This document shows, piece by piece, positions 23,271 to 38,443 of a DNA stretch of 45,777 nt. Positions within the stretch are counted from its first letter, which is position 1, and each line of letters starts with the position of its first letter. Location of the stretch: NCBI GenBank assembly GCA_046539225.1, contig JBKHHG010000001.1, forward strand, positions 1-45,777, given 5' to 3'. The notes under the pieces were generated by a model that saw nothing but the letters and a program-made list of their open reading frames with translations, made no database searches and was not told the DNA's origin. The translations under genes and the position numbers were made by a program. This DNA is from Candidatus Nanohaloarchaea archaeon. GTDB lineage: Archaea; Nanohalarchaeota; Nanosalinia; Nanosalinales; Nanosalinaceae.

Positions 23271-24128
23271 TTGGAGCCAAAAAGTTTCCTGGGTGAACTG
23301 TTTATCATTCTTGAACAGGTTAACGGAAGTATAGGAGCTTACGGCATTCAAATCGATACTTTTACAGTTTTACTGGCTCTGTGCGTTATATTCTCGGGTT
23401 TCCTCGCTAACAAGCTTTCCAACTTTCTGGTTGGACGGGGGGTCAGGAAGCGGTCGGGCGATCCTCATGCAGCGGTCACCGCCAAGAAACTTACTGCATA
23501 CATCATCTATCCGTTGACTTTTGTAGCGGTTCTCGGGGTCTTCGGCTTCCCGCTTTCCGCGCTCGGCGCCGCGGTAGGGCTGATAGGCCTGGGTATCTCT
23601 TTCGCGTTGAAGGATATGATCGCCAACTTTTTCTCCGGCGTTCTGATTTTGACAACGAGGCCTTTCAAGGTCGGCGACCAGATCTCAGTCGAGGGAGAGG
23701 CCGGTACTGTCCAGGATATCAAGGTTAGAGCCACTGATGTCAAGACTTATGATGGTAGAAAGGTGATTGTCCCGAACTCTAAGCTTTACAACGATACCGT
23801 TGTGAACAACACGGCATACGATGAGAGAAGGTTTGACGTGGTCGTGGGAATCGGCTACGATGACGACATCGAAAAAGCGAAGAGTAAAGGTCTCGAGGCC
23901 TTGAATGATTCGGAAAAGGTTTCGGATCACAGCGAGCCGCAGGTCCTGGTATCGGAGCTCGGGGATTCTTCCGTCGAGCTTAAGCTCCGTGGATGGACGA
24001 AGCCTTCCCGCGCCTCTCTTGTGGCTGCGTCTTCAGAGGTGACTCAGAACGTGAAGGAGTACTTCGACGAGGAGGGTATTGATATTCCTTACCCGATAAG
24101 AACTGTATTCATGGAGGATGAAGAATAA
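23271..24128 (+). CDS. mscS: small-conductance mechanosensitive channel (MscS family)
   Basis: 285 aa with a TTG start (no in-frame ATG lies upstream of TM1). Core: 'GLGISFALKDMIANFFSGVLILTTRPFKVGDQISV...GTVQDIKVRATDVKTYDGRKVIVPNSKL'. Confidence 0.85.
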   Translation: MEPKSFLGELFIILEQVNGSIGAYGIQIDTFTVLLALCVIFSGFLANKLSNFLVGRGVRKRSGDPHAAVTAKKLTAYIIYPLTFVAVLGVFGFPLSALGAAVGLIGLGISFALKDMIANFFSGVLILTTRPFKVGDQISVEGEAGTVQDIKVRATDVKTYDGRKVIVPNSKLYNDTVVNNTAYDERRFDVVVGIGYDDDIEKAKSKGLEALNDSEKVSDHSEPQVLVSELGDSSVELKLRGWTKPSRASLVAASSEVTQNVKEYFDEEGIDIPYPIRTVFMEDEE

Positions 24129-25938: not shown

Positions 25939-27123
25939 ATGTGGGTTCAGAAGTACAGGCCTGAAAACCTTGAGCAGTACCGTGGGTCGAAGAAGCAGAA
26001 GCAGAAGCTGCGTAAATGGGCGGAGAACTGGGATAGTGGTTCGAAACCTGTTCTGCTGCATGGTCAGGCCGGGACGGGTAAGACTTCTCTTGTGGAGGCC
26101 TTGGCGAATGATAGAGGTTTTGAGCTTGTTGAGACCAATGCCTCGGATGTAAGGACCAAGTCAGCGTTGAAGGATGAGTTGAAGGAGGCGACGCGTCAGG
26201 CCTCGTTCTTCGGCGGCGAAAAGCTTATTTTGATTGATGAAGTTGATGGGATGGGTAGGTCGGACCGTGGTGGAGTCGCAGAGCTGAAAGAGATCGTTGA
26301 GGAGAGCCGTTTCCCCGTGATCATGACGGCGAACGATGCCTACGACCAGAAGATCAGGCCTTTAAGAAATATTTCTGAAGAGGTAAAGCTTGACTCAGTG
26401 CATACTAACTCGATTAACGCCCACCTGAAGTGGATACTTGAGAAGGAAGGCATCGGTTACGACGAGGGCGCTGTTAAGAGGGTCGCCCGGAGGGCCGGAG
26501 GCCAGATGCGGAGCGCGATCAACGACCTGGAGTCGGTTGCCCTGGGCCGAGACAGGCTCGAGAAAGAAGACGTTGAGTCGTTAAGCCAGAGGGATTCCCG
26601 ACAGGAGATCTTCGATTCTTTGAAGATAATCTTCAAGACCATGAATATTCAGAACGCGCGTCAGGCCTCGGACAACCTTGATGAAGACGCCGAGACCTTT
26701 ATGCAGTGGGTGCGGGAGAATATTCCCCGGGAATACAAGAAGAACAAAGATGTGGAGGAGGCCTACAGCTGGATTTCGAAGGCGGATCTCTTCAACGGCA
26801 GGATCAGGAAGAGGATGTCCTGGAGCTTGATGAAGTATATCTACGAGTTTTCCACTGTTGGAGTGGCTTTAAGCAAGGAACAGAAGTACAAGGGCTGGAC
26901 AAAGTACCAGTACCCTTCAAAGATTAAAAAAATGGGTTCTACCCGGGCCTCACGGAAAAAGATGGGAGAAGTAACGTCAAAGATCGGTTCCAGGCTGCAT
27001 CTCTCCCAGAACGACGTCAAGAAAGACCTTCCGTTCTACTCCAGTATAATCAAAGATGATGAAGGAATTGCTGAGCAGCTTGAGCTCGAAGAAGATGAGA
27101 AAGAGTTTGTGGAAAAGTTTTAG
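25939..27123 (+). CDS. rfcL: replication factor C large subunit (short form)
   Basis: 394 aa. 'WVQKYRPENL', 'LLHGQAGTGKTS', 'LILIDEVDGM'. It directly follows rfcS. Confidence 0.9.
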   Translation: MWVQKYRPENLEQYRGSKKQKQKLRKWAENWDSGSKPVLLHGQAGTGKTSLVEALANDRGFELVETNASDVRTKSALKDELKEATRQASFFGGEKLILIDEVDGMGRSDRGGVAELKEIVEESRFPVIMTANDAYDQKIRPLRNISEEVKLDSVHTNSINAHLKWILEKEGIGYDEGAVKRVARRAGGQMRSAINDLESVALGRDRLEKEDVESLSQRDSRQEIFDSLKIIFKTMNIQNARQASDNLDEDAETFMQWVRENIPREYKKNKDVEEAYSWISKADLFNGRIRKRMSWSLMKYIYEFSTVGVALSKEQKYKGWTKYQYPSKIKKMGSTRASRKKMGEVTSKIGSRLHLSQNDVKKDLPFYSSIIKDDEGIAEQLELEEDEKEFVEKF

Positions 27124-27431
27124 GAGATACATTGCAGATCTATTCTTTCTCCAGGCCTTGTCATTGTAACGTTGAAGCAGTTCAGGCTGTTGGAGTATAA
27201 AACTTCTGATCTGTAGTCAGTGTATCCCACAAGCTTTCTGAAGTTCTGCCTTTCGAGTCTTGTAGGCGTACTGGAAGTTATTTTTTCTGCTTCATCCTGT
27301 ACAGACACGATATGGGGTGAAGTGTCTTCTACATCGAATTCACGGGTCTGTACGTCGGAGACTACGGATGCTACAGTCATAACTGTCAGAGCGACGATAA
27401 CCGCAGATATAAGCATGAACTGGGCCTTCAC
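27120..27431 (-). CDS. small prepilin-like protein (class III signal peptide), last gene of the pilus operon
   Basis: I prefer the second GTG (27431), giving 'MKAQFMLISAVIVALTVMTVASVV'. This has the same MKA/Q leader as two upstream pilin genes and forms a GTGA overlap with the preceding stop. Confidence 0.6.
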   Translation of the reverse strand: MKAQFMLISAVIVALTVMTVASVVSDVQTREFDVEDTSPHIVSVQDEAEKITSSTPTRLERQNFRKLVGYTDYRSEVLYSNSLNCFNVTMTRPGERIDLQCIS

Positions 27432-29134
27432 TCCGACCACCTCAGGTTTATCTTGTACGGCATGTACACATCTTCTTTTATTCCTCCGATGGCCGAGGTT
27501 GAGACCTCTTCAGGCTGTACGCGGCCTTCAAACCTTACCTCATTGTTCAAGAGGTAGTATATCGAGGATGCTACAGTTTTTCTCTGGTCTTCGTTGTATG
27601 TATGATTGTGGCCGAGCAATGCGAGCTGGTCGCCGTTGAAGGTCTTGAAGCTTGCGGTGTTAGGCATCAGTTCAATGTTTTGCTGTCCCTGTGCTTTAAA
27701 GTCGGCGCATTCGCCTTCAGTTCCGCAGCCCACCAGATCTATAGAGTATTCCCTGTTCGCGACTTTGACTGACTCGCCGTTCAGGTAGAAATCGCTGTCG
27801 TAGCCTGAGCCGTTGAAGTCGAAGATTAACGCCCGGCTGTTGCAGGAGTCTCCGACCGCTATATTCAGGAAATCGATGGGGGAAGAGTCTTCAAAGTCGA
27901 CCGTGCCCTCATATGAATCTGAGCAATCTGTAGGATTCGTGCCTCCCGGGCTCATCCCTGTAACCGATCTATCCCACTCGGAGAAGTCGTACTTCGTGGA
28001 GCTTGAGTAGATCGTCTGTGAGGCCTCGAGCCTGGAGCTGGTGTTGGAAACCACTTTTCCAGGTGGGTATAGCTGGAAGTTCGGATCGCCATCGAGACCC
28101 AGGTAAAGGGTTTTGATGTCGAGCGAAGGCCTTTCAGAGGAGAAAGCTGCATCTACCGCGCCTGAACCATAGCCAGACCTGTCAGTGTCTATCCATTCGA
28201 AGCCTGTCTCTTCAAGGAGGCCTGAGTCAAGGTCGTCTTCCTCTGGATTCATTAACAGAAGTACGGGCTTCGACACCAGGTGAGATATCACCGTGTCCAT
28301 ATTGGAGTTTATATCAGGCAGGGAGTCTCTCTCCGGGAAGATCAGTATGCTGTAGTCGGAGTTCTCTATCTCGTTGAAGTCAACCATGTCGACATGTGTC
28401 GATGTCTCTATACCGTTTACCTCCTGGTTGAGGATATTCTGGATTCTGCGGGGCTGTGAGGCCTTGTAGAAGGTTGATTCTCCGGCGCCGGTATCTATAC
28501 TGTGGAACTCGAAGAAGTCGGAGGGATCGGAGTTCTCCGAGTCGCCCCAGTAGAATATCTGGTCCAGGTAGAAAGGCCCGTCACTTGATGAAAACTGGCA
28601 CTGCTGTGTGCCGTTGTCAACCCAGAGCGTGTCGAATCCCGAGGTATCGACCTCTACGCCTTTAGGATTCGTATTTGCAAAGTAGAGCCGCACCCCATAA
28701 TCTTCTTCAAGGCCTCCGCTCGTCCTGTAGATCTCGGATGTCTCCGCAAACCTTTTGAGCTCCTGGAGCTCGCCGTGGCAACGGTCTCCCGAGTCTACTT
28801 TAACAATATCCTGATTTTCACGTTTGTCTTGTACCGCAAAGTATCCTATATCGATTTGAGAGATCGGAAGGTTGGATACCGCGCCTGAAACCTCCATATC
28901 TCTGTCAGATATCTCTGTGATAGAGGTTTGGAGGCTTCCGAGCTCTCCACGGCTGAGAAAACTGGTTAAATGGCCTGAGGCCTTCATCGACCGTGTCAGA
29001 TCCTGGGAGGCTACTTCTCTCTGGAAATCGTCCCAGTCCTGGTCAGGGTTTGAAACCTCTACAGCCCCGAAGATAAACATGAATACTATAGCAGACGCCA
29101 TCATCGCCTCCAGAGCATATCCGAGGCCTTTCAC
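27428..29134 (-). CDS. large (568 aa) prepilin-like protein, putative tip or adhesin subunit
   Basis: The GTG start at 29134 (GTGA overlap) gives 'MKGLGYALEAMMASAIVFMFIFGAV'. The rest is acidic and predicted extracellular, with many N-x-S/T sequons. Confidence 0.6.
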   Translation of the reverse strand: MKGLGYALEAMMASAIVFMFIFGAVEVSNPDQDWDDFQREVASQDLTRSMKASGHLTSFLSRGELGSLQTSITEISDRDMEVSGAVSNLPISQIDIGYFAVQDKRENQDIVKVDSGDRCHGELQELKRFAETSEIYRTSGGLEEDYGVRLYFANTNPKGVEVDTSGFDTLWVDNGTQQCQFSSSDGPFYLDQIFYWGDSENSDPSDFFEFHSIDTGAGESTFYKASQPRRIQNILNQEVNGIETSTHVDMVDFNEIENSDYSILIFPERDSLPDINSNMDTVISHLVSKPVLLLMNPEEDDLDSGLLEETGFEWIDTDRSGYGSGAVDAAFSSERPSLDIKTLYLGLDGDPNFQLYPPGKVVSNTSSRLEASQTIYSSSTKYDFSEWDRSVTGMSPGGTNPTDCSDSYEGTVDFEDSSPIDFLNIAVGDSCNSRALIFDFNGSGYDSDFYLNGESVKVANREYSIDLVGCGTEGECADFKAQGQQNIELMPNTASFKTFNGDQLALLGHNHTYNEDQRKTVASSIYYLLNNEVRFEGRVQPEEVSTSAIGGIKEDVYMPYKINLRWSE

Positions 29135-29964
29135 CAAGTCAGCACCTCCATCTTCACTACATCAGTCGAACTTGAAGAATCCTCCATAAGAGGATACCTG
29201 TTTAGTTTTGCCCGGGTTCCCTCAGCGGCATCAGGACTTCTCCCAACATGTTTGAGATGAGAGCTCAACACTATAGAAGCTCCAGGCCTTCTATCCCTGT
29301 TCTGAATCTTTTCGATCGTAAAGGTTCTACCCCCCGCAGTAAATGTATCGCCCTCCGTCTTAGGATCGGCCGAAAAGTCCCAGTCAAAGGTTGTCACATA
29401 GGTCGTGTTGTAGCTGCCGTCGAAGGCCGCCATCAGAAACCTGATGTCCTGTCCTTCCAAAGTAGTCTCTCCGTAATGGATCCTGTTCTGGGCGTTACTG
29501 TAGTACCCTGAATTCGGCTCATCTATATCAGGGTCTGAAGGCGGGTCTCCCCGGATAAAGTTTCTATGTGTCTCCACCACAGGATGCCAGGTAAAGTTGA
29601 AGCTGTACCGGTGTTCAAGGCCTAAATCTTCTACCATATTGCTGTAGTTGTAGTGGCCGGGTTCAGCAGTCTCAAGCATAGCCAGTTTGGACCGGTCGAT
29701 CCGCATCTCTTCCGAGGCAAGGCCTAACATCTCAGTGTCTTCAGGATGGTTCTCCCAGTCTGTTCCTCCACTGCCGTTTGAATGGCGGCCCTCCGAGTTC
29801 AGGATCAGGTCGGTGGTCTTCTTGGCCTCAAGGTTTTTCTCGGTTGTGCCAGCATAGGTGTTGAACTGGGGAATATCCGAAAGTGTTACCGTTAATACTG
29901 CTACAAGCACAGCGAGAAAGAACAGGAAGGATCCTGAGAACTCCAGTGTTGTCTGTCCTTTCAT
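29131..29964 (-). CDS. prepilin-like protein (class III signal peptide)
   Basis: 277 aa. In 'MKGQTTLEFSGSFLFFLAVLVAVLTVTL', the KG/Q cleavage context with Glu at +5 resembles Methanococcus Epd pilins. Confidence 0.65.
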   Translation of the reverse strand: MKGQTTLEFSGSFLFFLAVLVAVLTVTLSDIPQFNTYAGTTEKNLEAKKTTDLILNSEGRHSNGSGGTDWENHPEDTEMLGLASEEMRIDRSKLAMLETAEPGHYNYSNMVEDLGLEHRYSFNFTWHPVVETHRNFIRGDPPSDPDIDEPNSGYYSNAQNRIHYGETTLEGQDIRFLMAAFDGSYNTTYVTTFDWDFSADPKTEGDTFTAGGRTFTIEKIQNRDRRPGASIVLSSHLKHVGRSPDAAEGTRAKLNRYPLMEDSSSSTDVVKMEVLTW

Positions 29965-29968
29965 AGTT

Positions 29969-30994
29969 CTAAAACCCCATAGGCCTTATCAGGTACATGT
30001 AGACCGCGAAGGCCACCGGTAGCATGATTAAAGCGTGTTTTATTCCTGCGCTTGGCGATCCTTCCGATATCTGGCCTGCGACCGCTGCACTGCTCGCTCC
30101 CTGGATCATAAGCATCGCGAAGAGCACTGATTTGTAGTAGGCCATCTGACCGTATGCCATTTCCTCTGCGGCACCGCTACCAAGATCTGTTATGTTTCCG
30201 GGCACGAATCCGAACACCTGTGCGATACCGCAGAACGGATCCGCGTAACCGATTTCTCCGCTGCAGAAGTTTGTTGCTCCGCCTTCTCCTCCAAGCAACT
30301 GACCCACGTTTTCAATCGTCCCGGGTTCAGGCGATCCAAGGCCTAAAAGCTGTTGCATCAGGAAGTAGACTCCTACAGTGATGCCTATGAACAGGAAGTA
30401 GATGACGTACATTATAACAAGCTGCTGTTTCAACGCAGATTTTTTCTCCCGTATAACCTCTCTAAGCATTGTGGCGTTGTCCGCAACCGATTCAATGGTT
30501 TCGGTGATGTTGCCGCCGCTCCTGTAGCTCTGGAGGATGATCGAAAGCGATTCCTGTATAACCGGTGAATCCTCCACTCTTCTCGAGAAACGTTCCATAA
30601 CCTCTGGGAACGGTATCCCCCATGAAAGCTGGTTGTGAACCTTTTCTATCTCCTGATTTAAACGGCCGTAGTCGGTCTCCTTAGCGGACTCGAAGGATCT
30701 AAGAACAGTCATTCCGCCTCTTTTTGACTCGGCCAGGTCTTTCAGGAAAGCGGGGAACTGTCTCTCCATCTCGGAGATTGCCCGGTTCCTGAGGAACGAA
30801 ACTATACCATACGGCAGTATCGAGATCAGAAGGCCTAAAATCATCATGAGGCCTCCGTTCTGCACCGAGATATAGGAGTAGACTATCATGCCCAATAGAA
30901 TTGTAACTCCTCCGACCGCAAGGCTTCCAAATATCACCTTGTCCTCGGTCGAGTATCCGGGTTCGTACTCCTCCTCTTTGAAGAAGTCTATCAT
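29969..30994 (-). CDS. type IV pilus platform membrane protein, TadC/FlaJ-like (T2SS-F domain), half 2
   Basis: 341 aa. Cytoplasmic helical domain 'ISEMERQFPAFLKDLAESKRGGMTVLRSFE...WGIPFPEVMERF' lies between TM segments. ATGA overlap with the upstream half. Confidence 0.75.
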   Translation of the reverse strand: MIDFFKEEEYEPGYSTEDKVIFGSLAVGGVTILLGMIVYSYISVQNGGLMMILGLLISILPYGIVSFLRNRAISEMERQFPAFLKDLAESKRGGMTVLRSFESAKETDYGRLNQEIEKVHNQLSWGIPFPEVMERFSRRVEDSPVIQESLSIILQSYRSGGNITETIESVADNATMLREVIREKKSALKQQLVIMYVIYFLFIGITVGVYFLMQQLLGLGSPEPGTIENVGQLLGGEGGATNFCSGEIGYADPFCGIAQVFGFVPGNITDLGSGAAEEMAYGQMAYYKSVLFAMLMIQGASSAAVAGQISEGSPSAGIKHALIMLPVAFAVYMYLIRPMGF

Positions 30995-31872
30995 CTTATA
31001 CCACCTGGCGACATGCCTCTAACCAGTATGATAAACATTCCGGAAATTAAAGGCAACCCAAAGAATATTGCAAGCAGCTGTATACCCACGATCATATTGT
31101 CGCTCATGTTCTGAGATATAGTGCTCATAATCGCGCTCATTGATGTAAAGATGATCGAACCCACTACGACAACGGTAATATACATTTCAACGAGCAGCGA
31201 AAGATTCTTGGAGAACTCCTGAACCCTTCTCTTGTACTCGTTCATCAAGGTCTCAGCTCTCTGATTCAAGAACTGTCTCAGTGAGCCTCCAGTGGTTATA
31301 ACATGGTTAATACCCCACATCAGCTCCTTGTAATCCTCTGAAGGGCTTCTATTCGCTGATTTCTCCAGGGCCTCGCTCATATCCATTCCAAAAGTCTCCA
31401 CATCCCTTGAGATCTTTGCAGCTTCCCTTGAAACCTCTCCGTACTCCTCTGTCTCCGAAAGATTCTTGAATATCTGCGGCAGCGGCGTCCCCGTGCCTGC
31501 AAGGGTAGCCAGATACATTGTAGCGAACGGTAGAGTATCCTTAATCTTCGAAGCCCGGTTTCTTACAAGTATTGACGGATAGATATAGAATCCGAGAGCT
31601 GATAGAGATGTGAGTACCATTGAAGAGATTAGAGCGATGAAGACGCCGGGGAGGCCCGCTGATAGAACAAAGAACGTGCCTCCAACCGTTAAAGTCATGA
31701 GGCCTACGATTCCAACGGTGAAAAGCATCATACTGATGTATTCAGGAAGATTGATCTCTATACCGGCCTTTGAAAGTTTAGGCCTCAGGTCCTCGAAGTA
31801 CTCTACAAGCTCCAGGGCATAGCTTCCTACCTGGTTATAACAGAACGCGGCGTATTTTTCAAGCATCTTCAA
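30991..31872 (-). CDS. type IV pilus platform membrane protein, TadB/FlaJ-like (T2SS-F domain), half 1
   Basis: 293 aa from TTG 31872, or 291 aa from ATG 31866. 'DTLPFATMYLATLAGTGTPLPQIFKNLSE...GMDMSEALEKSA' plus flanking TM segments. It overlaps the ATPase stop. Confidence 0.72.
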   Translation of the reverse strand: MKMLEKYAAFCYNQVGSYALELVEYFEDLRPKLSKAGIEINLPEYISMMLFTVGIVGLMTLTVGGTFFVLSAGLPGVFIALISSMVLTSLSALGFYIYPSILVRNRASKIKDTLPFATMYLATLAGTGTPLPQIFKNLSETEEYGEVSREAAKISRDVETFGMDMSEALEKSANRSPSEDYKELMWGINHVITTGGSLRQFLNQRAETLMNEYKRRVQEFSKNLSLLVEMYITVVVVGSIIFTSMSAIMSTISQNMSDNMIVGIQLLAIFFGLPLISGMFIILVRGMSPGGIR

Positions 31873-33568
31873 TTTCTATTTCTTCTTCTCTGGAGTTAAA
31901 TGTTTCTCCTATCTTCTCCATAACTGACTCGGGATCGGTGTAGTAACGTGATATCACGTCGCCGACGTCACGGTAATGCTTGATCTGATCCTGCTGCATA
32001 TAGTTCATGACATGCTGCTTGTTCTTCAGCTCCTGCTGCAGGTCCTCGTATTCGCGGCCGCTCTGATCCGCGATATCCTTCAGAAGCATCGACTTGTTCT
32101 CCACTCTGTACTCATCGGTTTCAGGGTTCCAGCCAAAGACTTTGTTGGCGTCAATGCCTTTCCTCTTGTCGTATCCCAGGACCTCGTAAAGGCCTGTAAC
32201 CCTTCTAATATAGTTTCCATCCCTTCTGATCCTCTTTATAAGCATCACGAGGTCCAGCGTCTCAATCAAGGATGGAGAAAGATCGATAGGCTGAGTGGTC
32301 AAACGGTCCATAAGCATTTCAAGCGAGTCGGCGTGGATAGTGCTTAAACCGGTGTGGCCCGTAGCCATCTGCTGGAAAAGGATGTAGGCCTCTTCACCCC
32401 TGACCTCACCGACAATAATGTACTCAGGCCTTTGACGCAGCGACTCTTTCAGCAGGTTGTCCATCGATACTTCTCCTCCTTCATCCGCGCTGCTTCCGAA
32501 CCCGCTTCTCGCAACCTCCGGCACCCAGTGGTCGTGCGGAAGTCTTAACTCCGGCGTATCCTCGATCGAGACGATCTTCTTTTCAGGCCTGATGAATAGA
32601 GACAGAGAGTTCAGCTGGGAGGTTTTACCCGATCCCGTTGTTCCACATACAAGTATCGACTTTCCATGCTCTACCAGTGTCCACAGGTAGGAGTATATCT
32701 GCGCGTTCTCGGTCTCAAAGTCCATCATGTGCACCGGCGTCAACGGATCCTCTGTGAAACGCCGGATTGTAAAGTTTGAACCTTTCCTGGCGATGTCCGT
32801 AGCCAACGTGGCCTGGACACGTGAACCATCAGGCAGCGAACCGTCGAGAAGGGGCTCCGAAACCGAGATCGATTTACCACATCTCTGCGCCAGCTTCATC
32901 ACGAACTTGTCCAGCTCCTCGGGATCGTTCCACTCAAGCGATGTCTTGACGGATCCGAACTTGGGATTCCTGTGGTATGCATAGACCGGGATATCCGTTC
33001 CATCGCATGAAATATCTTCGACCTCTGTATCATTCATCAAGGGCTGCAACTTGCCTAAACCTGCGAAGTCTCTCTTCGTGTAGTAACGCACGATCTCCCG
33101 CTGCCGTTCATCAAGGGAAATATCGTACTTGTCGACGATCATATCGATCTTCTCCGAGAGATACTCGTCGGCCTCTCCGCCCTCCAGCTCTGAAAGAGTG
33201 ATGTCAAAGCTTCTCTCCATTATATCCTGGATCCTGTTGAGAACGGCTTCAGTTCTCGAAGTCAACTCGGGCTCTATAACATGATACTTTAGCTCCCCGG
33301 CACTTTCATCCCAGGCAATATAGGCCCAGGCATAGACTATCTCACCTTCATCCGGGTCAGCGGGTATCAACGGGTACTTTACCTCTACATCCGTCAAGTT
33401 CTCTTGTTCACTCGTCTCTTCAACCATGCCCGGATTGAAAGGGCCTGGCCGGGGAATATCCACTCCTTCACCGGTCGAGGCCTCTTCCTCCTTCTCATCG
33501 TCTTCATACATTTCAGGATGTTTAACCCTTCTCAGGTTTTCTATAAGGCCTTTCATCTTTATACTCAT
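31859..33568 (-). CDS. FlaI/PilB/GspE-family type IV pilus assembly ATPase
   Basis: 569 aa. 'YHVIEPELT', Walker A 'VCGTTGSGKTS', 'IIVGEVRGEEA' (Walker B/Asp box), 'TGHTGLSTIHA' (His box). Confidence 0.9.
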   Translation of the reverse strand: MSIKMKGLIENLRRVKHPEMYEDDEKEEEASTGEGVDIPRPGPFNPGMVEETSEQENLTDVEVKYPLIPADPDEGEIVYAWAYIAWDESAGELKYHVIEPELTSRTEAVLNRIQDIMERSFDITLSELEGGEADEYLSEKIDMIVDKYDISLDERQREIVRYYTKRDFAGLGKLQPLMNDTEVEDISCDGTDIPVYAYHRNPKFGSVKTSLEWNDPEELDKFVMKLAQRCGKSISVSEPLLDGSLPDGSRVQATLATDIARKGSNFTIRRFTEDPLTPVHMMDFETENAQIYSYLWTLVEHGKSILVCGTTGSGKTSQLNSLSLFIRPEKKIVSIEDTPELRLPHDHWVPEVARSGFGSSADEGGEVSMDNLLKESLRQRPEYIIVGEVRGEEAYILFQQMATGHTGLSTIHADSLEMLMDRLTTQPIDLSPSLIETLDLVMLIKRIRRDGNYIRRVTGLYEVLGYDKRKGIDANKVFGWNPETDEYRVENKSMLLKDIADQSGREYEDLQQELKNKQHVMNYMQQDQIKHYRDVGDVISRYYTDPESVMEKIGETFNSREEEIEIEDA

Positions 33569-33957
33569 CAGGCGTCCACCAGTTCAAAACCATCAGGTTC
33601 CCGGTAAAGTCTTACCTCGCCCGAACCCGAGCCTTCAAAGTTTTCGTTCAATGGCATCCGGGTTTCATAGCTTTCTTCCCCGACCTCCACAGTAATGTTT
33701 TCGCCAAGTACAACTCTGTAATCCCTGTTTGAAATATCTTCCGGCAGCTCCAGGTCGCGGTAGGCCTCTCCCTGTACAGGCCTTAAAGAGTTCACATTGT
33801 CGATTACTTCTTCCGAAACCATCCGGGCCTCCACTTTTTCGGAAGTATCGTAGACGCCGTTGCTGTAGCTGTCGAACGTCGTTATTATCCCTATCGCGGC
33901 CATCAATCCCAGGCCAAACGTCAGAACCGATTCCACTGCGAGGTACTGGGCTTTCAC
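33568..33957 (-). CDS. prepilin-like protein (class III signal peptide)
   Basis: 129 aa with a GTG start in a GTGA overlap. 'MKAQYLAVESVLTFGLGLMAAIGIITTF'. Confidence 0.65.
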   Translation of the reverse strand: MKAQYLAVESVLTFGLGLMAAIGIITTFDSYSNGVYDTSEKVEARMVSEEVIDNVNSLRPVQGEAYRDLELPEDISNRDYRVVLGENITVEVGEESYETRMPLNENFEGSGSGEVRLYREPDGFELVDA

Positions 33958-34601
33958 TGGAGGCTCACCTCTACAACGGTTCTCTTCCTGTCGATCTGTT
34001 CGCCTGTCTGGAGCTCGAAGCTGTTCTCATCAGTCTCCTCTCCCTGATTTACTACTGATATAGTGGTTTCGCCCGTGCTTCTTTCCGCTCCTGAGGTCTT
34101 GAGATCTGTCAACTGTATCTCCGGTTCAGAAAACCTTTCATCCAGAAGGTTTCGGAACTCTATTCTATAGGTTACTTGAGCCTCTGATCCCTGAGAGGTC
34201 ACCGCTACAACGCCTGAAGAGTCCTGGCCTCTTATACCGTAGTCACCTGAAGCAAAGGAGAGGCCTTGAAGGCTGTTACCGTCCAAGAGCCTCCAGGAAT
34301 CCTGTGGATAACGTGAAGTACTTGTAGAAGCTGTAATATCTATATAGTTTCCTGTCTCGTTTACATAAACATCTCCTTTCTGAAGCCGCAGGTCTATCTC
34401 GGATCCCGAGTTTGTGCCCGCATTACTAACGGACTCTATCTCCTGTTTCAGGCCTATCACATCGCTTTCCACCTGATCTACCTGGGCCTGGCTCTCGCGT
34501 TTTTCCAGAAGCGGTGTACCCCATACGTAGACCGCGGCGATAGTACCGACCATGATACCGGTTATCATCACTGCTGTAACGGCCTGTGTCTGGGCTTTCA
34601 T
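33954..34601 (-). CDS. prepilin-like protein (class III signal peptide)
   Basis: 215 aa. 'MKAQTQAVTAVMITGIMVGTIAAVYVW'. It has its own TATA-like element upstream. Confidence 0.68.
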   Translation of the reverse strand: MKAQTQAVTAVMITGIMVGTIAAVYVWGTPLLEKRESQAQVDQVESDVIGLKQEIESVSNAGTNSGSEIDLRLQKGDVYVNETGNYIDITASTSTSRYPQDSWRLLDGNSLQGLSFASGDYGIRGQDSSGVVAVTSQGSEAQVTYRIEFRNLLDERFSEPEIQLTDLKTSGAERSTGETTISVVNQGEETDENSFELQTGEQIDRKRTVVEVSLQ

Positions 34602-34625
34602 TGTCGAAGAATTGCCGAGGCCTGA

Positions 34626-34637
34626 ATATAAAATAAA
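34626..34637 (-). promoter_or_regulatory. TATA-like element (TTTATTTTATAT) upstream of the 33954-34601 pilin gene
   Basis: It lies 25-36 nt upstream of ATG 34601 in a 58-bp intergenic gap. Confidence 0.4.
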
Positions 34638-34659
34638 GGGAAAAGATATGTGAAAGAAA

Positions 34660-35187
34660 TCAGCAGGTCGCGCTTGAGCTTGTCGATGGGCTACAGGTGT
34701 AGGAAACGATTTCCTCTCCAGACTCCTGTTCTACAATGTGGAGCGTAACCTCATCATCAGGATCTACCATTGAAACCCCTGTGTCACATGTTGCTGTCGT
34801 ACCAGGACCGAACTCCTGGATATCCGAGGGGGCGTCAGCGGTGAAGCATTCATGAGTTCCTGTATCCGATAGCTGGTCGAATGCGGTAATTGCTGTATCT
34901 CTCTCCAGGCGTTCCTCTCCTGGAACACTGTACTCCATCCTTGCCACTTCAGTCAGGTTGTACTCCTCTTCACCTTCGTTCTGGATCCTGATCTCCATAC
35001 TTCCTGGAGAAGAACCGTTTCTCATAACTGTCTGGAAGTTGATATCTACTTCTTCAAGGAATCCTGTATCCGGTTCCTGTACAAGGCCTTGGAACTGTGT
35101 ATAAACTACTCCTACAGCTCCTACTGTAACAAGCAGCAGTAATACGATCGCGATTACGGGTGTAATACCCTTTCTTGTATCTAACAT
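34660..35187 (-). CDS. archaeal type IV pilin (Pilin_N/DUF1628-type N-terminus)
   Basis: 175 aa. 'MLDTRKGITPVIAIVLLLLVTVGAVGVVY' is the classic R/K-G-(I/V)-(S/T)-P-V-I motif. Cys residues are present in the globular part and at the C-terminus. Confidence 0.82.
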   Translation of the reverse strand: MLDTRKGITPVIAIVLLLLVTVGAVGVVYTQFQGLVQEPDTGFLEEVDINFQTVMRNGSSPGSMEIRIQNEGEEEYNLTEVARMEYSVPGEERLERDTAITAFDQLSDTGTHECFTADAPSDIQEFGPGTTATCDTGVSMVDPDDEVTLHIVEQESGEEIVSYTCSPSTSSSATC

Positions 35188-35215
35188 AGTACCTATGTAA
35201 AGTTCCTTCTCCCGG

Positions 35216-35224
35216 TTTAAATAA
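35216..35224 (-). promoter_or_regulatory. TATA-like element (TTATTTAAA) upstream of the 34660-35187 pilin gene
   Basis: It lies about 29-37 nt upstream of ATG 35187. A GGGAGAAGGA purine tract sits between it and the ATG. Confidence 0.35.
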
Positions 35225-35235
35225 GTTTAAGAGTT

Positions 35236-35715
35236 TCAGCAGAAATTACCGCCTTCGCTGTAGCATATGTAGCTGTCAGAGGACCTATAGGGTGCGTTAA
35301 ACGAGAACTCCACCGAGTCACCTGATGAAGGATAGCTAACCGTAGAATTAAACCCTACTATCTCTCCAGGATCTATGGATTCATCGCCGCCCCTGCTGCT
35401 GTCAAAGTACTCCCAGGACTGAGGCCTTCCCTCGACGTACAGGTTCCAGAGCTTTGTACCGTCTCTCTCAATATCCAGGGTTACAGAACCCGAGTTCTCC
35501 ACATCGATCATGAGGTATCCATTCGTTCCCCTGTAAGCCCGGTCAACTCTGATATCCGAGGCCTCCACCATTTCATCGTGCTCCATCTCGTCTTCAAGGC
35601 CTGTCTGGAGATCATCGATCGTCCCCTCAAGAAAGACTGATGCGGATCCTACCGCGGCCACAGCTATCAACATTAGAAGAGTGGTGGCGACTACCGGCGT
35701 GATTCCCTTACTCAT
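35236..35715 (-). CDS. archaeal type IV pilin (Pilin_N/DUF1628-type N-terminus)
   Basis: 159 aa. 'MSKGITPVVATTLLMLIAVAAVGSASVF'. It is a paralogue of the next gene and has a C-terminal Cys pair 'ICYSEGGNFC'. Confidence 0.82.
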   Translation of the reverse strand: MSKGITPVVATTLLMLIAVAAVGSASVFLEGTIDDLQTGLEDEMEHDEMVEASDIRVDRAYRGTNGYLMIDVENSGSVTLDIERDGTKLWNLYVEGRPQSWEYFDSSRGGDESIDPGEIVGFNSTVSYPSSGDSVEFSFNAPYRSSDSYICYSEGGNFC

Positions 35716-36367
35716 CCTTCATATTTCCAAACTTTTCCTTCAGGCGTTTCATGCGCTCATCCTGTCCCGTTCCAAGGCCTCTATCGCTGTCCGACTCAGG
35801 AGGCTGGACTCTCTGACTGTTCCGGGATTGCTGACCTGGCTGCTGCCGGGATCCCGAACCAGATTCAGGCCTCATATTCGAGGCATTTTGAGATGCATAA
35901 GATTTTCTTATACTTTCGTTCATATTTTCAAGGTGGTCGACTACCTCCTTATTTGACTCCTGAATATCGGACGCGACTTCATCCATCTTGTTTCCGATCG
36001 CATCGGCGAGCCGCCCCTCGATATCGCCGACAACTTCTCCTTCCATATCCATTTCAGAGGCCTCATTCAACAAGTCCATGAAGTTATTCATGTTTTCGAC
36101 TACTTCATCCATCTTATGGGTCAGGTCTTCGACAGAGTTCTTTAGTTCATGGGTGGACTCGGTCATGTCGTTGACAATCTTCTGGTTCGACTTCATTATA
36201 TCCAGTACATCGCGGACCAGTTCATCGTGCTGCCCCGAGCTCTGCGCCTTCTGTGTTTCCTCCTGAATCTCGTCAATCCTGCGCTCAAGTTTTCTTATAG
36301 GGCCTACAGGCACCACTTCATAGTCTTCGTCATCCGATGAACCAAGCTGTACTTCGTCATTAGGCAT
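35708..36367 (-). CDS. hypothetical coiled-coil protein, first gene of the pilus operon
   Basis: The track ORF starts at 36388. I prefer ATG 36367 ('MPNDEVQLG...') because GGAGG lies 9 nt upstream and the TATA element at 36405-36413 would place the transcription start downstream of 36388. Long heptad-like helical region and an S/G/Q/R-rich tail. Confidence 0.6.
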   Translation of the reverse strand: MPNDEVQLGSSDDEDYEVVPVGPIRKLERRIDEIQEETQKAQSSGQHDELVRDVLDIMKSNQKIVNDMTESTHELKNSVEDLTHKMDEVVENMNNFMDLLNEASEMDMEGEVVGDIEGRLADAIGNKMDEVASDIQESNKEVVDHLENMNESIRKSYASQNASNMRPESGSGSRQQPGQQSRNSQRVQPPESDSDRGLGTGQDERMKRLKEKFGNMKDE

Positions 36368-36404
36368 AAATAAAGGCCTCCAAACCATAATTTTGTCGAG
36401 GCCT

Positions 36405-36413
36405 ATTTATAAT
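36405..36413 (-). promoter_or_regulatory. TATA box (ATTATAAAT on the minus strand) for the pilus operon
   Basis: It is the strongest TATA-like element in the region, 17-46 nt upstream of the two candidate start codons. Confidence 0.5.
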
Positions 36414-36508
36414 CCACGGAACGAAAGGAGTTCTAACTCATAGAGAAACCCGATCATCTCCCAGCCTCACCAGGCTCTGATGTGGACAGTAATAACGGTT
36501 TTGAGACG

Positions 36509-36700
36509 CTAATTCAGACAGTAAATACTGTACAAGCTCCGGATCTGATTAAGAGTCCTGCCCCCGCACGCATCTACCTCTCTGCCATGGATCCCCCAGA
36601 TTCTTTTACCAGACATGTCAACATCTCTATCCGAGTAATGCAGCAGCTCGCATAAATTTTCAAGGTACTCATCAGAGACAGGATAGGCATCGAACTCCAT
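36509..36700 (-). CDS. possible small (63 aa) hypothetical protein
   Basis: It is the only ORF in a 400-bp otherwise non-coding gap. The N-terminus is acidic like the rest of the proteome. No motif recognised, so it may be non-coding. Confidence 0.3.
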   Translation of the reverse strand: MEFDAYPVSDEYLENLCELLHYSDRDVDMSGKRIWGIHGREVDACGGRTLNQIRSLYSIYCLN

Positions 36701-36740
36701 AACCAGTTAATTAAAGGAGGAATCTTAATAGAATGAAATT

Positions 36741-36776
36741 AAGATAAGAGAAAGAAACGAGGCCTTAGACAGGCCT
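36741..36776 (-). terminator. AGGCCT-AGGCCT hairpin plus T-rich tract downstream of the thermosome gene
   Basis: Minus strand: UAA-AUCCUCCUUUA-AGGCCU-GUCUA-AGGCCU-CGUUUCUUUCUCUUAUCUU. The two palindromic hexamers (36771-36776 and 36760-36765) form a 6-bp stem. Confidence 0.5.
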
Positions 36777-36787
36777 TAAAGGAGGAT

Positions 36788-38443
36788 TTACATCATGCCC
36801 CCCATTCCTCCGGGCATTCCTCCACCTGGACCTCCAGCTTCGTCTCCCCCCATGTCTTCACTGTCGAACCCTGAGGCGGAGATCACATCATCGATTCTCA
36901 GGATCATCTCCGCTGACTCGCTGGCGGACTGTACGGCCTGTGTCTTGGTCTGTTTAGGCTCCACTACTCCTTTGTCGAAAAGTTTCTCCGACTTCCCTGA
37001 GGATACGTCAAGGCCTGCCCAGATCTCTCCCTCATCGTGCTTGTTTCTGAGGTCGACTAAGGTATCGATCGGGTCAAAGCCTGCGTTTTCGGCCAGCGTT
37101 CTTGGAATTACTTCCATTGAGTCGGCGAACGCGTTGATCGCAAGCTGTTCTCTTCCTCCAACGCTGTCAGCATAGTCTCTAAGGCCTTGAGCTATTTCTA
37201 CTTCTGTTGAGCCTCCGCCTCCTACTACTCGACCGTTTCTAAGGGCTGAGGAGATCCCGCCGATCGCGTCTTCCATCGCTCTTTCGATTTCGTCGACTAC
37301 GTGTTCTGTTCCTCCTCTGATCAGGATTGAGACGGACTTGGCTTCTGGGCAGTCCTGTACAAAAGTCATTGAGTCGCCGCCTATTGACCTCTGCTCTACG
37401 CGTCCGGCCTCGCCGAGATCTTCGGCCTCGATGTCTTCGATCGATGTTACGACGTTTGCTCCTGTTGCCTTCGCCAGATTATCGATGTCAGAGGTGCTGA
37501 CCCTTCTTACTGCGAAGATTCCCTTCTTGGCGAGGTAGTGCTGGGCCATGTCGTCGATACCTTTCTGGCACAGTACGACGTTGGCTCCAGCATCGTCCAA
37601 GGCCTCAACCATATCCTTGAGCTGCTCTTCTTCCTGCTCCACAAAGTTCTGCATCTGTGCGGGGTCGCTGATATTGATCTCGGCGTCTGTCTCTGTCTCT
37701 TTAACTTCTATAGCGGAGTTGAGGAGAGCGATCTTTGCGTCTTCGACGTTTGAAGGCATTCCACCGTGAACCTTCTCCTTGTCAAGGATAACTCCCTGAA
37801 CAAGCTCTGTCTCGTCGATTGTTCCGCCCTCCTTTTTCTCGACCTTGATCATATCCTTATCAACTACAACAGGGTCCTCACCGTCCGCAACCTGTCTAAC
37901 GGCTTCAACAGCGATATCCGCAAGGTAATCCCGGGAGGCCTCAGCGCTTTTGCCTGTCATCGAGGTCATCGCAACCTTCCTTAAAGTGTCTTCATCCCCA
38001 AGATCAACTTCCTCGGAGATATCATCAAGTATCTCAGTGCTTTTCTGCCGGGCAAGCCTGTACCCCCTTGTAATCACGGTAGGATGGATCTCCTGATCCA
38101 GAAGGCCCTCAGCCTGTTTCAGCAGTTCTCCCGCTAAAACTACAGCTGTAGTGGTCCCGTCGCCGACCTCTTCCTCCTGGGTCTGCGCGACTTCAACCAT
38201 CATCTTGGCCGCCGGATGCTGAATATCCATCTCTTCAAGTATAGTCACACCATCATTCGTCACCACTAGATCCCCGACGGAGTCGACCATCATCTTGTCC
38301 ATCCCCTTCGGGCCTAAAGTGGTTCTCACAGCTTTCGCAACGGTTTTACAAGCAGCTATATTGTTTTCCTGAGCGTCCTCACCGGTCTGACGCTCCGCAT
38401 CTTCCGACATTACAAAAATTGGTTGTCCTCCAAGTCCTCTCAT
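36788..38443 (-). CDS. ths: thermosome subunit (group II chaperonin)
   Basis: 551 aa. '[13 protein letters not shown]', 'VTNDGVTIL', '[16 protein letters not shown]', 'GGGSTEVE', and a C-terminal '[11 protein letters not shown]' tail. Confidence 0.96.

Follow-up and report, generated by a model that had tools for sequence, protein, structure and literature searches.

An eleven-gene nanohaloarchaeal operon encoding a type IV pilus-like filament of the cell surface

What kind of surface structure is encoded by the eleven closely spaced genes at 27120-36388 on the minus strand of this archaeal DNA, and how might the cell use it? The window, that is, the whole stretch of 45,777 nucleotides analyzed, comes from a Nanohaloarchaeota genome, in keeping with the host-dependent archaeon that a first-pass annotation had suspected. 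All eleven ORFs are present where that annotation had placed them; their products are a coiled-coil protein, an ATPase, two platform halves, and seven proteins whose N-termini are of class III (prepilin) type (slashes mark the prepilin-type sites).

36404-36413, minus strand: TATA box ATTATAAATA upstream of the operon, read from the sequence
35708-36388, minus strand: g1, coiled-coil protein, ORF of 226 aa; generic coiled-coil Pfam matches only
35236-35715, minus strand: g2, PilA-type (Pilin_N-like) prepilin, 159 aa, MSKG/ITPVVAT; weak arch_flag_Nterm, ArlF, and UpsA matches
35216-35224, minus strand: TATA-like element TTATTTAAA before g3
34660-35187, minus strand: g3, PilA-type prepilin, 175 aa, MLDTRKG/ITPVIAIVLLLLVTVGAVGVVYTQFQ; Pilin_N below cut-off
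34624-34636, minus strand: TATA box TTTATTTTATATT before g4
33954-34601, minus strand: g4, DUF7289-family pilin-like protein, 215 aa, MKA/QTQAVTAV
33568-33957, minus strand: g5, DUF7266-like pilin-like protein, 129 aa, MKA/QYLAVES
31859-33568, minus strand: g6, PilB/FlaI-family assembly ATPase, 569 aa; T2SSE and PilB3_C domains (Pfam, NCBIfam)
30991-31872, minus strand: g7, platform N-terminal half, 293 aa; one T2SSF domain, ~5 hydrophobic segments
29969-30994, minus strand: g8, platform C-terminal half, 341 aa; one T2SSF domain, ~4 hydrophobic segments
29131-29964, minus strand: g9, DUF7287-like pilin-like protein, 277 aa, MKG/QTTLEF (QxS/TxE motif)
27428-29137, minus strand: g10, large pilin-like protein, 568 aa from GTG 29134, (M)KG/LGYALEAM; AlphaFold2 and family search
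27120-27440, minus strand: g11, small pilin-like protein, 103 aa from GTG 27431, (M)KA/QFMLISAV; weak DUF7261 match

The locus is a genuine operon, in which eleven genes of a tiny, halophilic symbiotic archaeon encode a type IV pilus-like filament of the cell surface; which genes it holds, their families and conservation, the signal motifs, and the promoters were established directly. Its gene junctions show tight ATGA/GTGA coupling, g2 overlaps the stop of g1 by 8 nt, and the only two intergenic gaps lie before g3 and before g4; at the far end, the 3′ end of g11 faces that of the convergent RFC large-subunit gene. In 41/41 nanohaloarchaeal loci the entire block is collinear, and a core of thermosome, coiled-coil protein, pilin-like gene, ATPase, and two platform genes is collinear in 31/31 loci from Aenigmatarchaeota, Undinarchaeota, and other DPANN. 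Median identity across the Nanohaloarchaeota is 57-74% for the machine parts and g1, and 33-42% for the pilin-like proteins.

Profile matches and a reading of the g7/g8 junction, which is an ATGA overlap, bear out the proposed FlaI/PilB ATPase with two separate T2SSF proteins. The best PDB match of g6 is afGspE (359 bits), followed by Sulfolobus acidocaldarius FlaI (264) and CpaF (143). The ArlJ/FlaJ profiles are divided between the two platform proteins, g7 aligning to their N-half (ArlJ positions 6-245 of 555) and g8 to their C-half (ArlJ positions 172-383 of 465). This split platform is of the TadB/TadC or EpdJ/EpdK style; in clade 1 a pair of tadC-like genes is common, and many clade 2 loci have one too (Makarova 2016, PMC4858521).

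Each of the seven pilin-like proteins carries a [KR][GA] site followed by ~20 hydrophobic residues, with ITPV directly after the site in both g2 and g3, and each of these motifs is conserved in ~35-40 orthologues, supporting the call of seven prepilin-like genes. The very short leaders predicted for several of them also hold up: an in-frame stop directly upstream forces a leader of three residues in part of the orthologues of g4 (20/38), g5 (22/39), and g9 (13/38), which is one addition of the present analysis. The three-residue leaders of g10 and g11 in the window hinge on GTG start codons (29134 for g10, 27431 for g11), both in a GTGA overlap with the preceding stop, as at the g4/g5 junction, where g5 likewise starts with GTG. 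As first noted, no prepilin peptidase gene is found among the polytopic membrane ORFs and profile matches of the window; the polytopic ORFs are a VCA0040-like protein, an MscS channel, and g7/g8 only.

The family assignments of the pilin-like proteins vary in strength. Pilin_N is found in 18/48 members of the g2/g3 family; g2 has no Pfam match of its own, and g3 scores 19.2 bits (E=2e-3), under the gathering cut-off of 25.2. The near-invariant N-terminal helix of g3, its own promoter, and its four cysteines make it the candidate major pilin. The DUF7289 match of g4 (E=5e-7, 29.8 bits) exceeds the cut-off of 27, and g4 is the most widely conserved pilin-like gene, present also in loci of Aenigmatarchaeota and other DPANN. 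DUF7266 in g5 falls under the cut-off (E=1e-3), and DUF7287 is detected in 13/36 g9 orthologues (best E=9e-6). DUF7261 ranks top for the g11 family, yet in only 3/28 members (best E=3.5e-3), and remote relatives of g10 give weak DUF7288 matches in 4/10; both links are weak (E ~1e-2 to 1e-4) and confined to the N-terminal region. The AlphaFold2 model of g10 (pLDDT 81, pTM 0.76) is multi-domain alpha/beta, with no significant structural match in Foldseek, and the family is nearly confined to the Nanohaloarchaeota (105 representatives among 1.84 billion proteins). We regard g10 as a candidate tip or adhesin subunit.

The TATA-like elements noticed within the operon proved to be conserved across the phylum, a further addition of this work. 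An equivalent of the element before g3 occurs in 33/37 orthologous loci vs. 1.3% of random windows, and the TATA box before g4 keeps a constant distance of 29-31 nt to the start codon in 36/39 loci vs. 2.3% of random windows. The g4 transcript is likely leaderless.

Taken as a whole, the locus quite probably represents a complete type IV pilus-like assembly system, minus the prepilin peptidase, of the euryarchaeal/DPANN, Makarova clade-2-like kind. The seven prepilin-like proteins would enter the membrane via their hydrophobic N-terminal helices, and an A24-family peptidase, presumably encoded elsewhere, would cut the short basic leaders after [KR][GA]. A hexameric PilB-type ATPase (g6), seated on a heterodimeric platform of g7 and g8 equivalent to the halves of canonical FlaJ/PilC, would then extrude the pilins from the membrane to build a helical filament. 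The bulk subunits are probably the two PilA-type (Pilin_N) proteins, g3 being favored over g2 because of its conserved promoter and near-invariant helix, with g4 (DUF7289), g5 (DUF7266), g9 (DUF7287), g10, and g11 as minor pilins of low abundance, priming or capping the filament. Large, fast-evolving, and lineage-restricted, g10 would be the best candidate for a surface or host-binding subunit. Three conserved promoters, before g1, g3, and g4, could let subunit and machine genes differ in expression level.

The subunit set had been thought to match no characterized archaeal pilus, which does not stand. The haloarchaeal pil locus L081 runs Pilin_N, ATPase with PilB3_N/C, T2SSF, DUF7287, DUF7288, DUF7261-like, DUF7266, DUF7289, and the window shares its families Pilin_N, DUF7289, DUF7266, and DUF7287, and weakly DUF7288 and DUF7261. 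Orthologous operons have also been described: an 11-gene FlaG/FlaI/FlaJ/FlaJ2 operon in Ca. Nanohalobium constans (La Cono 2020, PMC7443923), "Locus 1" of Ca. Nanohaloarchaeum antarcticus, conserved across cluster-2 DPANN (Hamm 2024, PMC11291902), and Tad-like clusters in other Nanohaloarchaeota and Undinarchaeota (Xie 2022, PMC9563170). The operon is thus already published from cultivated relatives, and the window is a well-annotated example, not a discovery. The proteome of Ca. Nha. antarcticus includes FlaI, FlaJ, and a pilin-like protein (PMC6642349). Ca. Nanohalobium bears filaments that are pilus-like or archaella-like, with thick archaella-like stalks (PMC7443923); in Ca. Nanohalococcus occultus, pilus genes are upregulated and SEM shows pilus-like stalks connecting symbiont to host (PMC11803251). 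In no nanohaloarchaeon is a filament tied genetically or structurally to these genes.

A putative role in cell-cell attachment, as first proposed, is plausible and shared by the literature; the filament would probably serve to attach the nanohaloarchaeon to surfaces or to its haloarchaeal host. Type IV pili serve DNA uptake in many bacteria, and the same machine might instead build a pilus mainly for DNA or nutrient uptake or host exchange, a reading that we consider improbable. A role resembling that of competence pili or of Ups has been suggested for Undinarchaeota and a part of the Nanohaloarchaeota, with DNA import through such pili as a hypothesis (Xie 2022, PMC9563170), and nucleotide biosynthesis is missing in these organisms (PMC6642349). 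However, genes for a DNA-binding protein, a nuclease, or a ComEC-like channel are absent from the locus and its flanks, and adhesion defects are the only experimental phenotypes of related haloarchaeal systems, as in H. volcanii, where the pilB1-C1 operon includes pilins of clade-2 type and cells adhere less once pilB1-C1 is deleted (PMC6491452). The present findings do not discriminate between adhesion and uptake.

By annotating FlaG/FlaI/FlaJ, several genome papers imply that the organelle is a reduced archaellum, built for rotary swimming. The best NCBIfam matches are indeed the FlaI and ArlJ models, and the weak ArlF match of g2, weak Arch_flagellin matches in 11/48 members of the g2/g3 family, the label "archaellum component FlaC" on some g1 homologues in IMG, faint ArlX/FlaX matches of g1, and the thick stalks seen by La Cono 2020 point the same way. 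However, g6 scores 394 bits on the ArlI/FlaI equivalog model, against a cut-off of 550 and 647 for true FlaI, within the range of non-archaellum ATPases (afGspE, 430; haloarchaeal pil-locus ATPases, 395 and 402; other DPANN, 419 and 450). In an orientation tree with a single archaellum reference and with clade-1 (Epd) and clade-4 references left out, the ATPases of the window and of DPANN form a group with afGspE and the pil ATPases of haloarchaea, and FlaI lies outside it in 100/100 bootstraps. No ArlH (KaiC-like), ArlC/D/E, or above-threshold archaellin was found among the eleven genes with Pfam and NCBIfam profiles, and the ArlX signal is weak, in 3/27 g1 members amid generic coiled-coil matches. 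An archaellum was therefore rejected, being very improbable, in agreement with the first-pass annotation and with Hamm 2019 (PMC6642349). For the preferred type IV pilus, the affinity of g6 to afGspE and haloarchaeal PilB-type ATPases, together with PilB3_C, points on sequence grounds to Makarova euryarchaeal clade 2. The original label "Epd/Tad-like" remains fair as an analogy to the working of the machine, but these ATPase features point away from Methanococcus Epd clade 1 and from bacterial Tad.

A non-filamentous, bindosome-like or pseudopilus-like system anchoring or displaying the large class III-signal proteins g9 and g10 is as improbable as an archaellum: the ATPase and platform also match the Sulfolobus BasE and BasF models at lower scores, 5/7 pilin-like proteins are unlike typical small major pilins, and g10 reaches 568 aa, but BasE gives 190 bits vs. 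a cut-off of 1000, two small PilA-type pilins have highly conserved N-terminal helices, and filaments are observed on cultivated relatives (PMC7443923, PMC11803251).

The coiled-coil protein g1 corresponds to the CCP of Hamm 2024, where coiled-coil proteins were compared to viral attachment fibres (PMC11291902). Orthologue alignments and the called protein P0159 indicate that it most likely starts at the second ATG (36367, 219 aa). The center of ATTATAAATA lies upstream of both candidate starts, ~21 nt from the first ATG (36388) and ~42 nt from the second, and transcription beginning ~26 nt downstream of the box would leave the first ATG outside the transcript. The N-terminal motif of the protein (DDYEVVPxGPIRKLEKR) is conserved and its central block almost invariant; it further has a disordered linker rich in Q, S, and G and a basic helix at the C-terminus, with both TM segment and signal peptide absent. 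Since g1 has no export signal and is conserved like the machine parts (median identity 57% across Nanohaloarchaeota) and not like the pilins, it would most likely serve the ATPase/platform complex as a scaffold or adaptor in the cytoplasm rather than being an exposed adhesin, and the evidence for such a cytoplasmic machine part is another addition of the present analysis.

The eleven genes g1–g11 lie on the minus strand between 27120 and 36388, and the first-pass annotation, which had read all of them as one pilus locus, is borne out by our analysis.

Genes of the pilus operon
35708–36388, minus strand: g1, coiled-coil protein (ORF of 226 aa)
35236–35715, minus strand: g2, PilA-type prepilin (159 aa)
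34660–35187, minus strand: g3, PilA-type prepilin (175 aa)
33954–34601, minus strand: g4, pilin-like protein (215 aa)
33568–33957, minus strand: g5, pilin-like protein (129 aa)
31859–33568, minus strand: g6, PilB/FlaI-family ATPase (569 aa)
30991–31872, minus strand: g7, single-T2SSF platform protein (293 aa)
29969–30994, minus strand: g8, single-T2SSF platform protein (341 aa)
29131–29964, minus strand: g9, pilin-like protein (277 aa)
27428–29137, minus strand: g10, large pilin-like protein (ORF of 569 aa; 568 aa from a GTG at 29134)
27120–27440, minus strand: g11, pilin-like protein (ORF of 106 aa; alternative start GTG at 27431)

Within g1–g11, intergenic gaps are found only upstream of g3 (48 nt) and of g4 (58 nt). 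The g1/g2 overlap is 8 nt, and the overlaps of g4/g5, g5/g6, and g7/g8 read GTGA, TGATG, and ATGA, respectively; use of the GTG starts at 29134 and 27431 would turn g9/g10 and g10/g11 into GTGA overlaps. Alignments of g1 orthologues, like the called protein P0159, place its likely start at the second ATG (36367). All eleven products are acidic (pI 4.0–5.6), as expected of a halophile.

This locus is already known, being an ordinary example of a published, phylum-wide DPANN pilus operon. An 11-gene operon of Ca. [quoted passage not shown] The proteome of Ca. Nha. antarcticus included FlaI, FlaJ, and an “archaellin”, which were reinterpreted as type IV pilus parts (Hamm 2019, PMC6642349); pilus genes that are upregulated, and pilus-like stalks running from symbiont to host, have also been described (Reva 2025, PMC11803251). 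Such clusters were termed Tad-like (TadA/B/C/V), with pilins left unannotated, by Xie 2022 (PMC9563170). Two conserved loci were defined in cluster-2 DPANN and Undinarchaeota by Hamm 2024 (PMC11291902), of which Locus 1, as described in its Fig. 4 legend, contains a coiled-coil protein, FlaF, PilA, CpaF, and TadC and adjoins GroEL, GatE, an NTPase, and Mpg. Compared with that legend, the window has the coiled-coil gene beside FlaF/PilA-type, ATPase, and TadC genes and the corresponding flanking genes; since the following genes lie directly upstream, the window operon is identified as Locus 1.

Upstream neighbours of the operon
36788–38443: thermosome (minus strand)
38511–40346: GatE
40949–41461: AAA_17/18 NTPase
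41748–43049: GatD

The Ca. Nanohalobium constans operon and Locus 1 (Ca. Nanohaloarchaeum antarcticus, cluster-2 DPANN) have the same gene count, content, and flanking genes as the window. Nothing substantive distinguishes the window from published nanohaloarchaeal operons; a thermosome–g1 spacer of about 400 nt is unique to it. Our literature search found no filament structure or genetics for the genes of this operon.

When all window proteins were compared with 80 loci by tblastn, the block of thermosome, g1–g11, RFC-large, and RFC-small was collinear in all 41 nanohaloarchaeal loci, as was the core (thermosome, g1, g4, ATPase, g7, and g8) in all 31 loci from other DPANN. Median identity among Nanohaloarchaeota falls from 74% for g6 through 61% and 62% for g7 and g8 and 57% for g1 to 33–42% for the seven pilin-like proteins. 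With a partial protein of Ca. Haloredivivus sp. G17, the g6 ATPase shares 92% identity; its identity to other ATPases is 70–81% for many Nanohaloarchaeota and about 50% for Aenigmatarchaeota, Undinarchaeota, and other DPANN. Conservation of a housekeeping chaperonin beside a surface-filament operon is unusual: among loci L001–L080, those from Nanohaloarchaeota and from distantly related DPANN (Aenigmatarchaeota and related MAGs) have the thermosome gene as the immediate upstream neighbour of the coiled-coil/pilus operon, in the same orientation, an arrangement pictured without explanation in Hamm 2024 (PMC11291902).

The profile searches suggested at first pass recovered the core machinery. 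A T2SSE domain in g6 (PF00437, E = 1.7e-32) identifies a PilB/VirB11-family ATPase, and its PilB3_C domain, at 29.6 bits, passes the Pfam cut-off of 27. One T2SSF domain (PF00482) was found in each of g7 and g8 (E = 5e-19 and 5e-18), aligning to the N-half and the C-half, respectively, of ArlJ/UpsF profiles, so that the two proteins are the halves of a canonical two-domain platform. Because the loci are collinear, the split is ancestral to them and not a local gene disruption. In pairwise phmmer comparisons with PDB sequences, g6 scored higher against Archaeoglobus fulgidus GspE (afGspE, a non-archaellum ATPase; 359 bits) than against FlaI (264 bits) or CpaF (143 bits). A neighbour-joining tree (465 columns, 100 bootstraps), which contains few references and none from clade 1 or clade 4 and serves for orientation only, united the window and DPANN ATPases in one clade (100/100), sister to afGspE and haloarchaeal ATPases, with FlaI outside this grouping (100/100).

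All seven genes of the operon formerly listed as “hypothetical” are, judged by their sequences, prepilin-like. The g4 protein is a DUF7289 member (above the Pfam cut-off), and g5 matches DUF7266 with E = 1e-3 in Pfam. The g3 match to Pilin_N (PF07790) is below the cut-off (E = 2e-3; 19.2 vs. 25.2 bits), and the Pfam search of g2 returned no Pilin_N match, only weak ones to ArlF, UpsA, and arch_flag_Nterm. Across the g2/g3 family, 18 of 48 orthologues match Pilin_N (best E = 2e-6), and the RKG↓ITPVIA motif (arrow, predicted cleavage) is consistent with that family. No family was matched by g9, g10, or g11 themselves in Pfam and NCBIfam profile searches. Among their orthologues, 13 of 36 in the g9 family match DUF7287 (best E = 9e-6). 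DUF7288 is matched directly, and weakly, by 1 of 31 g10 family members and by 4 of 10 remote relatives (E = 2.5e-4 to 1e-2) that were gathered in an exhaustive profile search, and DUF7261 ranks top for the g11 family, yet in only 3 of 28 members. Comparison of the g10 and g11 family profiles with single haloarchaeal DUF7288/DUF7261 proteins aligned the N-terminal helices alone and was not significant.

Class III (prepilin-type) signal peptides, cut after [KR][GA], had been proposed for these proteins, and each of the seven genes encodes a short basic leader, the [KR][GA] site, and a hydrophobic stretch of about 20 residues, the latter two kept in about 35–40 orthologues of each. The orthologue consensus is RKG↓ITPV(I/V)A for g2 and g3, KG↓QTQAVTAV for g4, KG↓QYLAVE for g5, KG↓Q(I/T)xLEF for g9, KG↓xGYxxE for g10, and KG↓QFMxIS for g11. 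An in-frame stop immediately 5′ is present in 20 of 38 g4, 22 of 39 g5, 13 of 38 g9, and 4 of 35 g11 orthologues, in which the leader can therefore have at most 3 residues. Of the five 3-residue leaders put forward in the first-pass annotation, those of g4, g5, and g9 are well supported by these stops, and those of g10 and g11 are reasonable in view of the GTGA overlaps; the leaders of g2 and g3 are 5–10 residues long. An eighth prepilin-like gene, truncated by the contig end, lies at 44569–45777 on the minus strand (N-terminal region …AIEYLMTYGWMLLVVAIAGGAIF). It carries a QxAxEYL-type class III motif, as in euryarchaeal pilins, followed by an acidic domain and then a C-terminal region rich in Gly, and had no match in the Pfam search.

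The subunit families point to a relationship of the operon with euryarchaeal clade-2 systems. A pair of tadC-like genes is present in clade 1 and in many loci of clade 2; the pilins of clade 2 are from the PilA family, and its loci carry a variable minor pilin of 250–550 aa (Makarova 2016, PMC4858521). A plasmid locus of Halobaculum halophilum (L081), found with the window ATPase, serves here as the example of the euryarchaeal clade-2 type (PilB3/PilB4 of Haloferax volcanii). Its genes encode, in order, a Pilin_N protein, a 989-aa ATPase (PilB3_N + PilB3_C), a fused T2SSF protein of 679 aa, and DUF7287, DUF7288, DUF7261-like, DUF7266, and DUF7289 proteins. Common to both loci is the PilB3_C domain of the ATPase; Pilin_N pilins and the DUF7287/7288/7261/7266/7289 families are probably shared as well, the links of g10 and g11 being weak, and the order g9–g10–g11 is that of 7287–7288–7261 in L081. 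Unlike the window, L081 has a single fused platform protein, extra N- and C-terminal domains in its ATPase, and no coiled-coil protein gene, whereas the window places its DUF7289/DUF7266 pair upstream of the ATPase; identity between the two types is low (about 36–40% for the ATPase). From the family matches and the shared gene order, the predicted subunit complement is the usual one of clade 2, in a different arrangement and with the platform split, and the first-pass view that it resembled no characterised archaeal pilus is abandoned. An adhesion phenotype has been reported for the H. volcanii pilB1-C1 operon, which has clade-2-type pilins (PMC6491452).

The Epd/Tad-like label of the first-pass annotation fits as an analogy for the split-platform machine; as an assignment to either system it is not supported. 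With the clade-1 Epd pilus of Methanococcus maripaludis (EpdJ/EpdK/EpdL, EppA) the operon shares a pair of separate platform genes, a size of about 11 genes that include several minor pilins, a Gln in position +1 of four of its seven predicted mature pilins, and a QxSxE-type motif in g9. It differs in its pilins, which resemble PilA/Pilin_N and DUF72xx rather than Epd families, and in its ATPase, which has PilB3_C and, in the orientation tree above, groups with afGspE and haloarchaeal enzymes; neither the 9-TM peptidase EppA nor a DUF2341 PilY-like adhesin was found in the locus or the window. Bacterial Tad/Flp systems likewise combine one ATPase with two single-domain platform proteins, and Tad nomenclature is used in several DPANN papers (PMC9563170, PMC11291902). 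However, g6 scores far lower against CpaF than against afGspE and reaches 160 bits on the TadA model TIGR03819 (cut-off 373), TadZ/RcpA-type parts are missing from the window, and no Flp pilin or secretin was matched in Pfam among the 11 proteins.

An archaellum resembles the window locus in its homologous ATPase and platform and in the class III signal peptides of its subunits. The top NCBIfam match of g6 was the FlaI/ArlI equivalog NF058587, but its 394 bits fall short of the 550-bit cut-off. On the same model, the true archaellum ATPase, FlaI of S. acidocaldarius, scored 647 bits, and non-archaellum afGspE 430, two haloarchaeal pil-locus ATPases 395 and 402, and two DPANN orthologues 419 and 450. 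ArlH (KaiC-like), ArlC/D/E, and archaellin were not found among the 11 proteins by Pfam search. The g2 match to ArlF has 23.9 bits (cut-off 110), and weak Arch_flagellin matches occur in 11 of 48 g2/g3 homologues and in none of the window's own proteins. The window locus thus differs from an archaellum in its split platform and in having no ArlH, above-threshold archaellin, or credible ArlX or ArlC. The ATPase score, set beside these positive and negative controls, the small tree, and the missing archaellum genes all speak against an archaellum; that reading is rejected, and the initial one of a type IV pilus-like locus is upheld.

For g1, only generic coiled-coil families were matched in Pfam and NCBIfam. 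Its N-terminal peptide (D/E)(D/E)YE(V/I)VPxxP(I/L)R(K/R)LE(K/R)R is conserved and common to several DPANN phyla, and a central block, IMKSNQKIVNDMTESTHELKNxVEDLT, is almost invariant. The AlphaFold2 model (pTM 0.27) consists of three long helices, then a linker that is disordered and rich in Q, S, and G, and at the C-terminus a short basic helix; its Foldseek search was empty. Because g1 lacks an export signal and shows machine-like conservation unlike that of the pilins, we favour a role as a cytoplasmic scaffold or adaptor of the machine over one as an adhesin. This differs from Hamm 2024 (PMC11291902), where the coiled-coil protein is likened to viral attachment fibres. Identification of g1 as ArlX/FlaX or FlaC was rejected: ArlX appeared weakly in 3 of 27 homologues, amid generic coiled-coil families, and FlaC_arch was absent.

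The AlphaFold2 model of g10 is confident (pLDDT 81, pTM 0.76), with the N-terminal helix followed by several domains of alpha/beta and beta type. Structure searches gave no significant neighbour in the PDB and no BFVD match with a meaningful TM-score, and no function could be assigned from the fold. A likeness to OAA-family lectins recurred at probability 0.1–0.38 (E at least 0.03) and was not relied on. The family has just 105 representatives among 1.84 billion proteins and varies in size, with versions of 827–870 aa in some genomes (827–857 aa in loci L016, L021, and L037). Its rarity, variable size, and want of a structural neighbour fit a fast-evolving exposed subunit, possibly an adhesin. 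The ORF at the g11 position measures 288–313 aa, vs. about 105 aa, in loci L004, L006, L028, L034, L038, and L040; these enlarged g10 and g11-position ORFs suggest domain insertions or fusions in exposed subunits.

TATA or TATA-like elements were located at three positions.

36404–36413, minus strand: TATA element ATTATAAATA, upstream of g1
35216–35224, minus strand: TATA-like element TTATTTAAA, upstream of g3
34624–34636, minus strand: TATA-like element TTTATTTTATATT, upstream of g4

The two internal elements, noticed at first pass before the second and third pilin genes, proved to be conserved across the phylum: equivalents precede g3 in 33 of 37 loci and g4 in 36 of 39, compared with 1–2% of random windows, and the g4 element stands at a fixed 29–31 nt from the start codon. 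This conservation makes separate expression levels for g1–g2, g3, and g4–g11 plausible. The window holds the 12-mer AGGCCTCGRCAA in just two exact copies (36393–36404 and 34612–34623, minus strand), one immediately downstream of the TATA box of the g1 promoter and one in the corresponding place at g4; with one mismatch allowed, there are 11 copies vs. 0.4 expected. At the g4 promoter it is not kept beyond the two closest relatives (L001 and L042 retain AGGCCT only), and it is probably not a general operator. The thermosome–g1 spacer (36389–36787) compares with roughly 150 nt in L001, as estimated from match positions, and neither the spacer nor its 63-aa ORF (36509–36700) has a homologue among the 80 related loci. 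Scanning the window for Rfam families and tRNAs returned nothing, and bacterial sigma-70 and terminator scans are uninformative for an archaeon.

No polytopic candidate for a prepilin peptidase lies within the 45.8-kb window, which makes up the entire contig, in agreement with the first-pass annotation. Its polytopic membrane ORFs are a VCA0040-like protein (9838–10725), an MscS channel (23271–24128), g7, and g8, with no others, and a motif scan found no ORF with an A24-like GxGD[..]K motif in the window or the 80 related loci. In the literature, TadV is mentioned for one nanohaloarchaeal order only (Xie 2022, PMC9563170). The MscS-type mechanosensitive channel gene (plus strand, 285 aa) is missing from the longest-ORF map of the window because opposite-strand ORFs overlap it.

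Since type IV pilus-like filaments are leading candidates for the means by which the ultrasmall DPANN archaea locate their hosts and keep hold of them, a clean inventory of the parts has its use. To published descriptions, in which the seven genes were “hypothetical” or the pilins unannotated (PMC9563170), the present analysis adds their assignment as prepilin-like, the link to haloarchaeal DUF72xx pilin families, the phylum-wide conservation of the 3-residue leaders and two internal promoters, and the argument for a cytoplasmic g1; the overall picture of a locus already in the literature is unchanged. Candidate targets for experiments in cultivated systems are g3 as filament subunit, g10 as adhesin, and the g1–ATPase contact. 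A bolder reading, which we consider unlikely as a whole, would make the DPANN coiled-coil/ATPase/split-platform module a distinct type IV filament sub-type. In it, g1 would be a new cytoplasmic scaffold, a functional analogue of ArlX/ArlCDE docking via its invariant YEVVPxGPIRKLE peptide, and the Nanohaloarchaeota-restricted 568-aa g10 a host-specificity tip adhesin, with partner minor pilins bearing M-K-G/A leaders.

Two adjacent Bat/vWA-like membrane proteins are encoded on the minus strand at 15080–18810, about 8 kb from the operon, one with a BatA N-terminal domain and a weak DUF7407 match (17311–18810) and the other with a weak VWA_2 match (15080–17314); vWA-domain proteins are listed among possible type IV pilus regulators (Makarova 2016, PMC4858521). 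Among the related loci, L038 (JBLGBK010000003.1) is titled “MAG: Colwellia polaris”, a bacterium, yet the nanohaloarchaeal block of thermosome, pilus operon, and RFC genes is present there in full, and its ATPase shares 77% identity with that of the window; the record title is probably a mislabel.
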